Origin: an uncultured Verrucomicrobiae bacterium
GTDB lineage: Bacteria; Verrucomicrobiota; Verrucomicrobiia; Limisphaerales; UBA11358
NCBI GenBank assembly: GCA_963754775.1
Contig: CAVWHM010000023.1
Span: 19,734 to 83,733, forward strand
Direction: 5' to 3'
DNA length: 64,000 bases
Below the pieces are notes generated by a model. The model saw only the letters and a program-made list of their open reading frames with translations, was not told where the DNA came from and searched no databases. Of this stretch, positions 355 through 51,802 are shown piece after piece (position 1 is the stretch's first letter; each line of letters begins with the position of its first letter). Position numbers and translations under genes: made by a program.

Positions 355-1557
355 ATGACGCGCACGGAAAAACTTCTGGCTGAACTCATCGCGCTCCCCA
401 GCGTGAATTCCGCCTTCGCTCCATCCGATGGAGCTTCGGCGCGACAGGCTCGCCTTCGTCAATCGTATTATGGCGAGAAGAATGTCGCGGATTTTCTGGC
501 TGCCACCGCCGCGCGCGCCGGACTCGAAGTGGAATTTCAGAAGGTTTTACCGGGCCGTCCCAATCTTATCGTGCGGCTCCTTCCGCGGAATAGAATCCGC
601 CAGACCATCTTGCTTGCGCCGCACCTGGACACGGTCGGCGCCGACGATTCACAATTCGTCCCGCGCCGGAAAAACGGGCGGCTGCACGGACGCGGCGCGT
701 GCGACACAAAAGGCTCCGTCGCCGCCATGCTCGCCGCGCTTTGTGAATTGGCGAACGCCTAATCGCGTCCGAACGAAACCGAAATTGTTTTCGCCGGTTT
801 GATTGACGAAGAAAACGCGCAGGCCGGTTCCCGCGCGCTCGTAGCGCAGGCGTCCCGCCTGCGACTTGTGGAAAAACAGCGCAACAGGCGAGACGCCTGT
901 GCTACGACGCTGGCAATTGTCGGCGAACCGACACGATTGCAGGTGGTCACCGCGCACAAGGGCAGCTTGTGGCTGCAACTCGAAACGCGCGGCAAGGCGG
1001 CACACGGCGCAGCGCCCCATCTCGGCCAAAACGCCGTCCACGAAATGGCGCGCATCGTGGACGCGCTCGAAACGGATTACGCCGCGCGGTTGCGGAAGCG
1101 AAAACATCCGCTGCTCGGCATGGCGACGGTGAACGTCGGCACGATTTCCGGCGGTGCGCAACCCAATATTGTGCCCGACCGCTGTACCATCACGATTGAC
1201 CGGCGGACGCTGCCGGGCGAAACGGAAACCGGTGTTCGCCGTGAAATGGCCGCGTTCCTGAACTCGCAAAATCTGTCCGCAAAAATTTCCGACACGAAGC
1301 TCGCGCCAGCGCTGGCGCTGGAAACGGACCCGCAGCTGCCGCTCGTCCGGCAGTTTTTACGGAGTGTCGGCCAGTCGAGACCGGTGGGAGTGGATTATTT
1401 TTGCGACGCGGCGGTGCTGGCCGGCGCCGGCATTCCGAGCGTGGTGTTCGGCCCCGGCGACATCGCGCAGGCGCACACGGCGGACGAATGGATTTCACTG
1501 GCATCGCTGGAACGCGGCAAAAATCTGCTTTTGACCTTCCTGAAATCGCTTCCCTGA
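355..1557 (+). CDS. M20 family metallopeptidase (ArgE/DapE-like) with an in-frame TAA at 760-762 and two repeat-derived inserts
   Basis: ORFs 355-762 and 799-1557 are in the same frame; HLDTV, GRGACDTKG, DEE, VGEPT, AHTADE motifs. Confidence 0.8.
408..458 (+). repeat. CCTTCG..GCT(A/T)CGG palindromic element, in frame in the M20 gene
   Basis: tccgccttc-gctccatc-c-gatggagc-ttcggcgcgacagg; encodes part of APSDGASARQARLRQ. Confidence 0.6.
841..905 (+). repeat. GTAG REP-like doublet (family A), in frame in the M20 gene
   Basis: GTAGCGCAGGCGTCCCGCCTG...CAGGCGAGACGCCTGTGCTAC; peptide VAQASRLRLVEKQRNRRDACAT; homologous to 44935-44989. Confidence 0.85.
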
Positions 1558-1587
1558 ACCAGCCGGTTCTTTTATTGTCCTACGCCC

Positions 1588-2856
1588 ATGCCCGCAGCCA
1601 CAACCGAGACGACCCCGGCAGGTTCCACTTCGCATCATGCCGCCTTTTTTCGCCAGAGCGGCTGGCTGATGATTGCGAATGTGGCCAGCGGCTTGTTGAT
1701 GTACGCAGTCCATTTGTTGAACAAAAAGATCCCGCCGGCGGAATACGGCGTTTTCGGCGTGTTGCTGGCAGTGGTGATGTTCGTGCCGAACATGCCGCTG
1801 CAAATGGTGTTTGCCCAGCAGACGGCCCGGGCGCTGGCCACGAACCGGGAGCGCGAACTGGCGGGGATGATCCGGCTGGCCTGGCTGGGAACGCTTGGAC
1901 TGTGTCTCTTGTTGGCCATCGGCGTGGGGATCTGGCAGGCGGAGATTCTGGCGGCCTGGAAATTGGCGAACCCGGCCGGCTTGTGGATTACGCTGTTGGT
2001 GGTGTTGCTTTCGTTTTGGCTGCCGCTGTTCTGGGGTGTGTTGCAGGGGCAACAGGATTTTTTCTGGCTGGGCTGGTCGAACATTTTCAACGCCGCCGGC
2101 AGGCTGGGCCTGGCGTCGTTCATCGTGCTGCTGCTCGGTGGTTACGCGGCGGGAATGATGGTGGGAGTTTGCCTGGGGCTGGTCACGGCGGTCGGCATCA
2201 GCATCTGGCAAACGCGGTCCCTGTGGCTGAGGCACGCGCAACCGTTCGACTGGCGCCGCCTGCTGGCGCAAATCGGCCCGCTGATGCTGGGGTTTGGCGC
2301 GGTGCAATTTTTTTTCACAGCCGATACAATGTTCGTGAAGGCATATTTCTCCGGCGATGATGCGGCGTTTTATGTGAGCGCCGGGACTTTGTCGCGCGGA
2401 CTTCTGTGGCTGGTGGTGCCGCTGGCGACGGTAATGTTTCCAAAAATTGTTCACAGCGTCGCGCGATCGGAAAAGAGCAACCTGCTGGGCATCGTGCTGC
2501 TCGGCACAGCCGTTCTGGCGGCGGGCGGCGCGCTGGGGCTGACGGTGCTGGGACCGTTGGTCATCAAGCTGGCTTACTCGAAAGACTATGTTTCCGTCGC
2601 TGCGGCGGTGTTGCCGTGGTATGCGTGGGCGATGGTGCCGCTGTCCCTGGCCTACGCGCTCGTCAACAACCTGCTGGCGCGGTCGCAATTCCGCATCGTG
2701 CCGGTGCTGTTGCTGCTCGCCGCGGTGTACGGTGTTGCGTTGACTCAATTTCACGACAGCCTGATAACGGTGCTGAAAACCCTCGGTGTTTTCAACCTGC
2801 TGCTGCTGGGCGCGTGTGTGTGGTTCACGTGGGGCAAAATAGGAGATAGGAAATAG
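1588..2856 (+). CDS. Polysaccharide flippase/Wzx-like (MOP superfamily) membrane protein
   Basis: 422 aa, about 12 hydrophobic segments, EYGVFG motif, next to a GT2 gene. Confidence 0.7.
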   Translation: MPAATTETTPAGSTSHHAAFFRQSGWLMIANVASGLLMYAVHLLNKKIPPAEYGVFGVLLAVVMFVPNMPLQMVFAQQTARALATNRERELAGMIRLAWLGTLGLCLLLAIGVGIWQAEILAAWKLANPAGLWITLLVVLLSFWLPLFWGVLQGQQDFFWLGWSNIFNAAGRLGLASFIVLLLGGYAAGMMVGVCLGLVTAVGISIWQTRSLWLRHAQPFDWRRLLAQIGPLMLGFGAVQFFFTADTMFVKAYFSGDDAAFYVSAGTLSRGLLWLVVPLATVMFPKIVHSVARSEKSNLLGIVLLGTAVLAAGGALGLTVLGPLVIKLAYSKDYVSVAAAVLPWYAWAMVPLSLAYALVNNLLARSQFRIVPVLLLLAAVYGVALTQFHDSLITVLKTLGVFNLLLLGACVWFTWGKIGDRK

Positions 2857-2934
2857 CAGATGGGAGCTGGGGAATAAAAACTTGGTTCTCCAAATCTGTG
2901 CCCTAACTCCCAACTTCTATCTGCCATCTCCTAA
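2840..2934. repeat. Inverted 7-mer tandem arrays (ATAGGAG-like / CTCCTAA-like) at a convergent gene junction
   Basis: ataggag ataggaa atagcag atgggag ctgggga ... ccctaac tcccaac ttctatc tgccatc tcctaa. Confidence 0.7.
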
Positions 2935-50346: not shown

Positions 50347-50349
50347 GGG

Positions 50350-50435
50350 AAACATCGAACACCGAACATTCAACCTCGAATGTGCGCTGCAAAATAAATT
50401 GAATGTTCGACGTTCGGCGTTGAATGTTGAATGTT
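50350..50435. repeat. Inverted 7-mer arrays without a gene (same unit family as the four-helix-bundle flanks)
   Basis: aacatcg aacaccg aacattc aacctcg ... gaatgtt cgacgtt cggcgtt gaatgtt gaatgtt. Confidence 0.8.
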
Positions 50436-50442
50436 TAACCGA

Positions 50443-51802
50443 ATGAGAAACTCCGGCTTGTCCCAAATGGGTCAGCGCACCGGCGAATCGCCCATCTCGT
50501 GGCTCATGCAGGCGGCGCTGGCGCGGGCCAGGCTCATTTCGCTCGCCGCCGGCTTCACCGACAATCCTCTCGTTGCCCGTCGCTGAAACCCGCGCGGCGC
50601 TGAATCACATCCTGCGTTCGCCCAAAACCGGCCGGCCCGCGTTGCAATACGGTTCAACTGCCGGGGACCCTGAACTGCGCCGGCTGACGGCGGAGCATTT
50701 GCAGAAACTTGATTGGGGAGGGACGCCGTGTCGGCGTCCCAAAAATCAGGGACGGCGGCACGCCGGCCCTCCCGAAATTTATTCACCCGAACGCCTGCTC
50801 ATCACCAGCGGTTCGCAGCAACTGCTTTACATGACCGCCGAGGCCTTGTGCGACGAAGATGACATCGTGCTCGTCGAAGACCCCACGTATTTCGTTTATC
50901 TCGGCATTCTCCAAAGTCGCGGGCTGCGCGCGCGCGGCATCCGCCTTGAACGCAACGGACTGGATCTGATGCATCTCGAAAAGATCCTGCAATCGCTCAA
51001 ACGTTCCGGGGACTTGCGCCGGGTCAAAATGTTTTACCTCGTCAGCTATTTCCAAAATCCGACCGGCGTCACAACCAGCTTTGAGAAAAAGCGCGGCCTT
51101 CTGAAATTGCTGAGAAAATTCGAACGCGCGGCGGGACATCCCATTTATCTGCTCGAAGATGCGGCGTATCGCGAATTGTACTTTCCCGGCAGGGCTGACC
51201 TGCCGGTCAACCTGGACGCGCAGCAGCGCGTCCCTACCATGCCTCCTTCGACCCTCGCGGTTCCCGGCGCGGCTGAGCGCGTGATTTACGCCGGCACATT
51301 CACCAAGCCGTTTGCGACCGGCGCGCGGGTGGGTTATGGCGTCCTGCCGGAACCGCTGTTCACGGCGGTAAAACGCATCAAGGGCAATCACGATTTCGGC
51401 ACGGCGAATTTGTTGCAGCAGCTTTTTGTTCGCGTACTGGCTTCGGGTGCTTACAAAAAGCACGTCGCGCGGCTGCAAAAGCGTTACGCGTACAAAGCAC
51501 GCGTGATGAAGCTGGCACTTGAAACACATTTCCCGCCATCCGTCGAATGGTGGGAACCGGCAGGCGGACTTTATTTCTGGGCGCGCCTGCCGCGCAACAT
51601 TTCGACAGGCGTGAAATCAAAAGTTTTCCGGACCGCGCTGAAGAATGACGTGCTTTATGTGCCGGGCGAATTGTGTTACGCGGACGATCCGGCGCGTGCA
51701 AAACCGGTCAACGAAATGCGCATCAGCTTCGGCAGCGCGAGCGAGAATGACATCCGCGAAGGCATCAAGCGGCTGGGCAAGGTACTGCGGAAATTTGTTT
51801 GA
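50443..51802 (+). CDS. PLP-dependent aminotransferase class I (LysN/Aro8-like); +1 indel at about 50567; two repeat inserts
   Basis: ISLAAG, LQYG, TSGSQQ, EDPTY, FQNPTG, EDAAY, TFTK, MRISF. Confidence 0.85.
50717..50772 (+). repeat. GGAG REP-like doublet in frame in the aminotransferase
   Basis: GGAGGGACGCCG-tgt-CGGCGTCCC...GGGACGGCGGCACGCCGGCCCTCC; peptide GGTPCRRPKNQGRRHAGP. Confidence 0.75.
51188..51238 (+). repeat. Family B double hairpin (51 bp) in frame in the aminotransferase
   Basis: Peptide GRADLPVNLDAQQRVPT. Confidence 0.88.

Follow-up and report, generated by a model that had tools for sequence, protein, structure and literature searches.

The question raised by this locus is how short palindromic and tandem segments could come to lie, in frame, within many conserved housekeeping genes, and which force(s) might keep them there. 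The locus is a stretch of 64 kb (hereafter, the window) corresponding to positions 19734-83733 of C23 in G000, a metagenome-assembled genome (MAG) of an uncultured bacterium of the order Limisphaerales, which measures 3.58 Mb in 53 contigs, with 57% G+C and a completeness of 76%. A preliminary description of the window listed 18 such sites, regarded them as palindromic or tandem repeats, and proposed that several independent families are adding loops to the encoded proteins. Our analysis confirmed the observation in part and supports the interpretation. Indeed, with a probability of roughly 0.78, this genome has been colonised by many families of selfish palindromes of the REP (repetitive extragenic palindromic) type, which would be mobilised by REP-associated tyrosine transposases (RAYTs) and kept in tolerant loops of the host proteins, tandem arrays of heptamers representing a second class of inserts.

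The host protein of each site was aligned with 11 orthologues of the same genus (the genus set comprised 18 congeners, to which the other G-numbers used below refer, and G000 itself). Membership in repeat families was assessed by blastn against the G000 genome and by period-7 detection, and palindromy by folding 16 elements as DNA against 200 shuffles per element, from which the z values reported below derive. According to Pfam, the hosts are an M20 peptidase (in two pieces), AddB, the C-terminal half of CarB as an open reading frame (ORF) of its own, RibD, FtsY, a CofH/MqnE-type radical SAM enzyme (in two pieces), an NAD-dependent epimerase, Ogt, and a class I/II aminotransferase. The sites are the following, where the letters denote the repeat families of the genome and REPIN a putative inverted dimer of REPs:

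408..470, plus strand: insert of 16 aa in the M20 peptidase, with a short hairpin (GCTCCATC/GATGGAGC) and weak repeat membership
841..905, plus strand: family A REPIN in the M20 peptidase, GTAGCGCAGGCG...CGCCTGTGCTAC, read VAQASRL...
17460..17588, plus strand: long palindrome of 129 nt (43 aa) in AddB, with family C heads GGTGGGGCGA...TCGCCCCACC
17996..18060, plus strand: GAACTCC heptamers around a 33-nt core (CCATCC...GGCAGGCC) in AddB
18360..18412, plus strand: degenerate family-A-like segment in an AddB linker, with an 82% match to a family A arm
18991..19013 (listed as 18994), plus strand: (CGTCACC)n heptamer array in AddB, read SPVTRH
19584..19645, plus strand: family G palindrome in AddB, CCCCTCACCC...GGGGTGAGGGG
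24902..24971, minus strand: (TTCGGAG)n and the same 33-nt core as at AddB 17996, in the ATP-grasp domain of the C-terminal half of CarB (net 60 nt, 20 aa)
28359..28408, minus strand: family C palindrome in the reductase domain of RibD
28580..28613 (listed as 28584), minus strand: (GGACTGT)n heptamer array in RibD, read VHSPQST
28863..28919, minus strand: family C palindrome in the deaminase-reductase linker of RibD
30466..30499, minus strand: lineage-specific insert of 33 nt (11 aa) in FtsY, no demonstrable repeat
37775..37826, minus strand: family B REPIN of 52 nt in MqnE, GGCAGGG...CCCTACC, frame-breaking
44935..44989, plus strand: family A REPIN in the NAD-dependent epimerase
45125..45160, plus strand: insert of 11 aa in the epimerase, no demonstrable repeat
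46125..46175, minus strand: family B REPIN of 51 nt in the interdomain linker of Ogt, read GRADLLVGQDAQQRVPT
50717..50772, plus strand: family D palindrome in the class I/II aminotransferase, GGAGGGACG...CCCTCC
51188..51238, plus strand: family B REPIN of 51 nt in the aminotransferase

Relative to the orthologues, all 18 sites are either inserted or hypervariable, in agreement with the expectation that the segments should correspond to gaps in relatives, and the inserts, contributed by several distinct families, add about 11-43 residues, matching the loops of roughly 10-45 aa previously proposed. The statement that almost all of them keep the frame holds as well: 17 of the 18 are open and in frame, the exception being the copy in MqnE, which is one base longer than the 51-nt family B copies at 46125 and 51188 and splits its gene into two overlapping ORFs (37686-38243 and 37016-37843). 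The inserts at AddB 17460, CarB 24902 and FtsY ~30466 are missing from 11 out of 11 relatives, and those at epimerase 44935 and aminotransferase 51188 from 10 (the remaining one carrying another insert in the case of the epimerase). At M20 841, eight relatives have no insert, two have family A and one has another family; at M20 408, three share the insert, one has a different one and seven are without; at aminotransferase 50717, other inserts occur in five relatives and none in six; and the 11-aa insert at epimerase 45125 is present in three. In-frame inserts occupy the MqnE site in eight relatives and are lacking in three, while the RibD linker (28863) harbors an insert of one of several families in nine relatives and none in two. 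The palindrome at RibD 28359 is common to two relatives, the other nine having heptamer arrays there, and both this site and 28863 are gaps in comparison with the RibD of B. subtilis (2b3z_A). At AddB 19584, family G is shared by G004, five of the 11 relatives have no palindrome, and others have one of a different family; at AddB 17996 the relatives carry other heptamer units or a REP in the same place; a segment similar to that at AddB 18360 occurs only in G017; and the Ogt linker is variable in all relatives, with other families or short linkers. Lastly, alignment with E. coli CarB (1bxr_A) places the insert of the CarB homologue between residues 769 and 773, and the insert interrupts the Pfam CPSase_L_D2 match.

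The idea that the sites are palindromic or tandem repeats stands for most of them: 14 of the 18 belong to repeat families, while 18360, 30466 and 45125 are singletons in the genome (FtsY giving a single 19-nt blast match) and 408 is a weak case, its sole genomic match being a 23-nt partial one. Palindromy is strong, with 0-1 of 200 shuffles folding as well, at 841 (z -5.9, 0 of 200), 44935 (z -10.4), 37775 (z -3.7), 46125 (z -6.9), 51188 (z -4.5), 28863 (z -5.6), 50717 (z -6.4) and 19584 (z -3.4); it is weak at 17460 (z -2.3; the interior of this palindrome is unique in the genome), 408 (z -2.0), 28359 and 24902, and absent at 17996, 18360 (z -0.6), 30460-30520 (z +0.2) and 45125 (z +0.6). Used as blast seeds, the palindromes gave 12-77 genomic hits each (for instance 54 for M20 841, 77 for epimerase 44935, 22 for Ogt 46125, 27 for aminotransferase 50717 and 17 for AddB 19584). 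As previously noticed, several of the same families occur also between genes; in the window itself there is an intergenic copy of family B, besides intergenic copies of families H and I.

When G000 was compared with itself, 960 intervals proved to be repeated, amounting to 102,212 nt (2.9% of the genome); 846 of them, 25-250 nt long, fall into 149 clusters, and 390 are palindromic. Several clusters are ordinary segments of paralogous genes, and one consists of prepilin-type N-terminal segments, which presumably fits the Planctomycetes-Verrucomicrobia-Chlamydiae (PVC) group. The palindromes open with family-specific heads, that is GTAGCGCAGGCG (A), GGTAGGG (B), GGTGGGGCGAG (C), GGAGGGACG (D), CCCTCACCC (G), CGTAGCGGCG (H), GTAGGAGACGAGG (I), GGAGCGCCGG (J) and CGGAGCGCG (L), with GTAG-type cores in A (GTAGCG), B (GGTAGGG), H (CGTAGCGG) and I (GTAGGAG), and with the variants GTGG in C and in the family of the RAYT locus C45, and GGAG in D and J. 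Such short palindromes with GTAG-type heads (z from -3.4 to -10.4 for eight elements) are dispersed mostly as inverted dimers, with 3-45 head-to-head pairs per family; family B, in particular, is made up of two hairpins joined head-to-head via a GGTAGG/CCTACC stem, and its stems differ between copies while the pairing is kept (ACGCGC/GCGCGT versus CCGACC/GGTCGG). As judged from their sequence, these palindromes are GTAG-type REP dimers (REPINs), a concept which reportedly goes back to earlier published work.

If the palindromes are REPs, then RAYT genes are to be expected in the genome. The Y1-transposase domain PF01797 was found above cut-off at five places, all on other contigs, which bears out the previous statement that the window harbors no RAYT gene. 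Two of the five matches are IS200-like (above the NCBIfam transpos_IS200 cut-off) and three are RAYT-like by tblastn; with the NCBIfam model REP_Tyr_transpos (cut-off 80), the C5 copy scores 92.7 bits, and the C45 copy 72.1, below the cut-off. An HVH motif is visible in the translations, and the RAYT-like genes are probable members of the HUH/Y1 family. Each of the three has inverted copies of its own REP family on both sides, the families opening GTGGCACAGGCC..., CGGAGCGCGGAGC... and GGAGCGCCGG...:

RAYT locus C45: flanking REP GTGGCACAGGCCTCCGGCCTGTG
RAYT locus C5: flanking REP CGGAGCGCGGAGCATTGCTCCGCG
RAYT locus C32: flanking REP GGAGCGCCGG...

In the whole genus, RAYT matches occur in 13 of 19 genomes; 11 of 15 loci are flanked by inverted matches 18-56 nt long, the heads being of GTAG or GGAG type, two have matches of only 13-15 nt and two have none, these counts being without a shuffle control. 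The arrangement is that of the published REPtrons. The suggestion that a RAYT might be found flanked by each family is thus borne out for three genes with their own REP family, but not for families B, C, D, G and I, to which we return below.

A few observations on the RAYT genes deserve mention in their own right. At C45:229594-232113, outside the window, a complete REP-RAYT-REP unit of about 266 codons lies in frame and without stops inside a DinG-like helicase, so that the Y1_Tnp domain is embedded in a protein with Helicase_C_2 and DEAD_2 domains; the same arrangement is found in G017, with an open frame of 1014 aa and a RAYT part 88% identical. Partial RAYT matches in very long open frames (706-1477 aa) occur in five other genomes (loci L204, L206, L212, L215, L216 and L218) and may be further in-frame RAYT insertions or fusions. 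In addition, the RAYT-like gene at C32:55191-55802 has family J palindromic repeats within its own reading frame.

REPs are classically extragenic, and it is on this point that the genome analyzed here departs from expectation. Genes were called with a home-made caller based on codon usage (2923 genes, 80% of the genome). Of the 390 palindromic repeat intervals, 117 (about 30%) lie within a called gene, by a margin of at least 45 nt, versus 3224 of 5000 random 60-mers in the same test; a location predominantly outside genes is thus not what is found, above all for family A, with 21 of its 27 paired elements in genes (the corresponding figures being 13/45 for B, 8/22 for C, 5/10 for G, 8/19 for J and 5/29 for H). 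A flank-based classifier of coding positions was dropped as insensitive (1396 of 3000 random positions scored as in frame) and was replaced by containment in called genes. The in-gene copies do not use the three frames alike. In family A, the head is read at offset 0 (VAQASRL...) in nine copies and at offset 1 (SSAGVPPA...) in 12, while offset 2, which would place a TAG in frame, is used in none of the 21; in family B, 12 of 13 in-gene copies use the GRD...GPT frame, though the VGT... frame is also open. Hydrophilic readings dominate among the in-gene elements. This bias in frame, together with the hydrophilicity, implies that the in-gene segments are probably translated and that the encoded peptide would be under selection.

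The second class of inserts consists of tandem arrays of heptamers. With thresholds of about three to four units, we detected 139 period-7 arrays of at least 21 nt, compared with 3, 5, 3, 4, 0, 0 and 3 arrays for periods 5, 6, 8, 9, 10, 11 and 12, respectively. This is an excess like that of the short tandemly repeated repetitive (STRR) sequences; the location, however, is not mainly intergenic, with 61 of the 139 arrays in called genes (median in-gene length 30 nt). The arrays comprise 54 distinct units. The in-gene location was confirmed for arrays of AddB, CarB and RibD, and also for arrays of congeners. Because 7 equals 1 modulo 3, a heptamer array gives the same 7-residue peptide in every frame, so that a unit with a stop in any phase cannot code in that orientation; the 12 AAATCGT arrays are all outside genes. 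Among four multi-copy units open in both directions, the C-rich strand is the sense one in 26 of 28 in-gene arrays (AACTCCG 14/16, ACAGTCC 7/7, ACTCCGC 3/3, ACCCCGG 2/2), and the resulting peptides are rich in P, S and T, as in NSELRTP and VHSPQST.

The units change from one species to another at the same position. At AddB 17996, 18360 and 18994 and at the RibD sites 28584 and 28359 (sites 2 and 3 of that protein), the arrays of congeners are similar in length and different in unit (at AddB 18994, for instance, AATCCGC, AATCGGC, CAACAAT or GTCACGC), automated detection finding arrays in 5, 6, 5, 8 and 8 of 12 genomes, respectively. Segments of equivalent length in orthologues had been named in the preliminary description as a finding that would speak against its proposal if they were unrelated to repeats; RibD 28584 does have such segments in all 12 species (by eye), but they are themselves built of heptamers with different units. 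With one mismatch at most allowed for this unit, (AACTCCG)3 has 44 matches in G000 and 0-9 in the 18 congeners (0 in 12 of these), and conversely (AATCCGC)3 has none in G000 and 39, 35, 27 and 18 in G003, G011, G007 and G010, with 0-2 matches for reversed-pattern controls. Heptamer unit families have thus been amplified by lineage. They are also nested with other elements: a 33-nt core lies within AACTCCG arrays in AddB, CarB and two other loci (the AddB copy at 17996 being 97% identical over 62 nt to that of CarB), and arrays occur in the loops of family I palindromes. The likeness of units was significant neither at the same site across genomes nor in the same genome across sites (permutation P 0.21 and 0.27; 32 arrays, 5 sites, 15 genomes), so that both replacement and concerted change in place are compatible with the data. 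It is conceivable, though we put it forward only tentatively and consider it rather doubtful, that the arrays are a distinct dispersing micro-element, copied independently of RAYTs and overwriting earlier arrays and REPINs at fixed permissive loops of housekeeping proteins, orthologous loops recording successive waves of units; the independence from RAYTs is suggested by the bursts of single units, in single lineages, at tens of loci without conserved flanks. As a separate observation, some perfect arrays are paired with an inverted partner arm of degenerate units (C19:25799, C29:113242, C38:75505 and C28:52200), giving hairpins in which one arm is clean and the other variable.

How might the two classes have reached the genes? 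In the explanation that we favor, REP-associated tyrosine (HUH/Y1) transposases, the genes of which lie at other places in the genome, would move REPs in trans in the form of single-stranded hairpins, and copies falling within genes would persist only if their net length is a multiple of three, if the frame avoids the TAG of the head, and if the resulting peptide, rich in G, P, R, S, T and Q, lies in a tolerant loop or domain linker. Since tolerant loops would be few, different families should be found at the same sites in different species. The tandem arrays of about four heptamers would spread, lineage by lineage, into the same kind of loops. The support for mobility is indirect and comes from the differences in presence and absence among congeners.

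Some points weigh against this explanation. The preliminary description suggested that lengths preserving the frame might be enriched in coding regions, and this was not borne out: the lengths of the palindromes show no excess of multiples of three in genes versus outside genes. The ends of a palindrome are not the insertion junctions, so this test is uninformative on the inserts themselves, and the net length of an insert would be set by the junctions rather than by the palindrome. Neither in the 76%-complete MAG nor at the 15 RAYT loci of the genus did we find a RAYT flanked by family B, C, D, G or I; neither an event of transposition nor a rule for the choice of targets nor a target-site duplication was established; and four of the 18 listed sites (408, 18360, 30466 and 45125) are not demonstrable repeats. 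The heptamers behave as a class apart, linked neither to RAYTs nor to any other enzyme, and no conserved flanks or target duplications were found around AACTCCG and four other units. The fractions of elements within genes rest on a crude caller, in whose genes only 64% of random positions fall. Moreover, three junctions show host sequence similar to the REP head, a likeness that could equally be due to microhomology-templated copying.

This last point leads to the possibility that the segments are not mobile at all, heptamers arising in place by slippage and hairpins by template switching or quasi-palindrome correction, with mutational bias or gene conversion accounting for the likeness between loci. 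The resemblance at the three junctions and the lack of conserved flanks around the arrays fit this idea, as do the nearly equal length of the segments in all species at RibD 28584 and 28359 and at AddB 18994, the units that differ by one base in every copy (GTCCACA versus GTCCAAA), and the fact that the AddB positions correspond to nothing more than loops of variable length in four genomes from other families of this order. An origin in place is nevertheless improbable in our opinion, given that palindromes of 50-65 nt, and heptamer units too, recur unchanged at tens of unlinked loci, that unit families were amplified in single lineages, that RAYT genes are flanked by matching REPs, and that inserts of 33-129 nt are missing from 11 out of 11 congeners. 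It might also be argued that the elements are kept for a function of the nucleic acid, such as an mRNA stabiliser, a terminator, an attenuator, a site for gyrase or nucleoid proteins, or a site for some reader of the 7-nt periodicity. RNA roles have been proposed for REPs (in the part of PMC3733652 considered here), many copies are intergenic, the stems of family B vary with the pairing kept, and the degenerate partner arms of the heptamer hairpins could, by eye, be tolerated through G:U pairing. Against such a role, which we hold to be quite improbable, speak the variable presence of elements in the same gene of close congeners, the interchangeability of families at one site, the lack of any Rfam match to the elements, and the bias in frame and orientation, which indicates selection on the peptide.

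That bias bears as well on the idea that the mature proteins are unaltered, the inserts having been taken out at an earlier stage through RNA excision or protein splicing. Apart from the fact that hairpins could in principle be targets for RNases, nothing was found in its favor, and the avoidance of the TAG frame in family A (0/21), the single frame of 12 out of 13 family B copies and the orientation of 26 out of 28 heptamer arrays would be unexpected in untranslated segments; nor do inserts of 11-43 aa show intein or intron features. Removal is, accordingly, hardly credible. A different concern, raised beforehand, is that the hosts might be pseudogenes. Lesions do exist in the M20 peptidase, Ogt, the epimerase, the aminotransferase and MqnE, whereas AddB, CarB, RibD and FtsY are intact in G000. 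The M20 peptidase has a TAA at 760-762 where 11 out of 11 relatives have Lys, which points either to a pseudogene or to an erroneous base. In comparison with the closest congener, single extra bases shift the frame in Ogt (~46080), at the 3' end of the epimerase (~45231) and in the 5' part of the aminotransferase (~50565), at positions that are not homopolymers and lie outside any repeat element; together with the extra base in MqnE, they look like assembly indels or recent decay. These lesions, and a completeness of 76%, might suggest that the whole picture is an artefact of poor assembly or the product of a decaying genome. This is very improbable, as equivalent inserts are found, in frame and in open frames, in 18 independently assembled congeners, four hosts are intact, and four of the five lesions are outside the elements. 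Colonisation by mobile REP-type families, with heptamer arrays as a second class, remains the reading that best accommodates these data.

The palindromic part of the phenomenon is already known in principle. In the sections of the paper of Di Nocera et al. 2013 on which we draw (PMC3733652), GTAG and CGTC REPs are reported within known genes, and RAYT genes flanked by family-specific REPs; Opitutus terrae, also a member of the Verrucomicrobia, ranks first in the number of intragenic GTAG REPs and harbors several GTAG families, one of them with GTGG heads, and over half of the inserts are dimers encoding 20-30 residues, with DNA repair genes as frequent hosts. The likeness to our case, as far as those sections go, includes the phylum, the multiple GTAG families with GTGG heads among them, dimers with 1-2 bp spacers, and inserts in DNA repair genes, sometimes two per gene (AddB here has five). 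It extends to the REPIN/RAYT system in general, with its hairpins headed by GTAG or GTGG, inverted dimers, several families, RAYTs flanked by their own REPs, and sub-families with alternative complementary stems (PMC3733652). The genome of the window differs from Opitutus terrae in belonging to another order, Limisphaerales; it differs from the REPIN/RAYT system in general in that about 30% of the palindromic intervals, and 21 of 27 family A dimers, are in genes, that some heads are GGAG, and that no RAYT was found for five families. Turnover at a given site among congeners, heptamer arrays in genes and a REPtron in frame in a host gene are not described in the main text of that account, in the parts considered (PMC3733652). 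Rickettsia palindromic elements (RPEs), the classic case of in-frame insertion, are, as presented there, selfish palindromes lying in frame in conserved and apparently functional proteins, and RPE-containing proteins are reported to be expressed (cited in PMC3733652). Compared by description, RPEs share with our elements only this mode of insertion; their host is an alphaproteobacterium with an obligate intracellular life, and those of shorter length are classed as CGTC-type, with no transposase of their own.

Concerning the heptamers, over-represented repeats such as GGGAATC (Xanthomonas/Nostoc), TAACTGA (Beggiatoaceae, cyanobacteria) and the cyanobacterial STRR are described, in the portions of the two papers used here, as mainly intergenic and under-represented in coding regions (PMC4692102, PMC4679880). 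The same portions describe an excess of period 7, arrays that tend to have about four units and at times form inverted pairs, and several units per genome, all of which recur in G000 (PMC4692102, PMC4679880). Here, in contrast, 61 of 139 arrays are in genes, in frame in housekeeping enzymes; the sense strand is not G-rich, and units vary between congeners at one site. The small dispersed repeats (SDRs) of Nostoc punctiforme are reportedly tiny elements that nest in one another as well as in heptamer arrays (Elhai et al. 2008), and the 33-nt core in AACTCCG arrays, together with the arrays in REPIN loops, may be a similar case in a different phylum. In the open-access literature, we found nothing on heptamer arrays in frame in housekeeping genes, including the coding DNA of Verrucomicrobia, on the turnover of families at fixed loops among congeners, or on a REPtron in frame in a host gene. 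Hence, the palindromes are a case known in principle, here in another order and with an unusually high density and variety, while in-frame heptamer arrays amplified by lineage seem to be less well described; the density, the turnover of multiple families at fixed loops and, above all, the heptamer arrays make this a worthwhile variant rather than a routine case.

The core enzymes of a free-living, soil-type lineage tolerate REPs and heptamer arrays, up to five per gene, and the replacement of families at the same loops in sister species (loops which would presumably map to permissive regions of the folded proteins) provides a natural map of insertion-tolerant loops in conserved proteins. With at least 19 congeneric genomes, the genus offers a comparative system for the choice of targets by RAYT elements and for the spread of heptamer arrays. 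On the practical side, inserts and arrays will confuse gene callers, the lengths of orthologues and the estimates of completeness of Verrucomicrobiota MAGs. As for public sequencing runs, 20 contain part of a 9.9-kb stretch (best share 0.40; RNA runs 0.05-0.07), values that carry no inference on habitat, expression or strain.

Besides the inserts in genes, the window harbors the following intergenic elements, all identified by self-blast, those at 35341 and 42882 also by period-7 detection:

12940..13029, intergenic: family I copy (GTAGGAG...), self-blast interval with 8 matches
14530..14585, intergenic: family B REPIN immediately preceding a tRNA gene (tRNA 14594-14675)
21774..21849, intergenic: family H REPIN, CGTAGCGGCG...
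35341..35428, intergenic: family I palindrome, the loop of which contains (TCCGCAC)n heptamers
40679..40763, intergenic: two heptamer arrays of AACATTC type in inverted arrangement
42882..42956, intergenic: inverted pair of ATTTACG/CGTAAAT heptamer arrays

The Rfam search of the window returned two tRNAs only, and no Rfam family matched any of the elements.

Some observations concern the host genes themselves. The host of the insert at 24902 had been called CarB, and this needs correction: the ORF, 23993-26029 on the minus strand, is a stand-alone one for the C-terminal half (the second pre-ATP-grasp/ATP-grasp and the MGS domains), so that the N-terminal half must be encoded elsewhere. All 18 congeners match this CarB-like ORF over the same region (query ~46-678), with open frames mostly of about 600-690 aa and up to 926 aa. 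In the AddB ORF, the first ~85 codons (17039-17290) are not conserved as coding, and the matches of relatives contain stops; translation probably begins close to the Walker A segment. Two groups of tandem paralogues on the minus strand are the result of ordinary duplication, that is three ORFs at 60118-61889, with 211-nt blocks 75-76% identical, and two paralogues of about 510 aa at 8261-11356, 75-81% identical.

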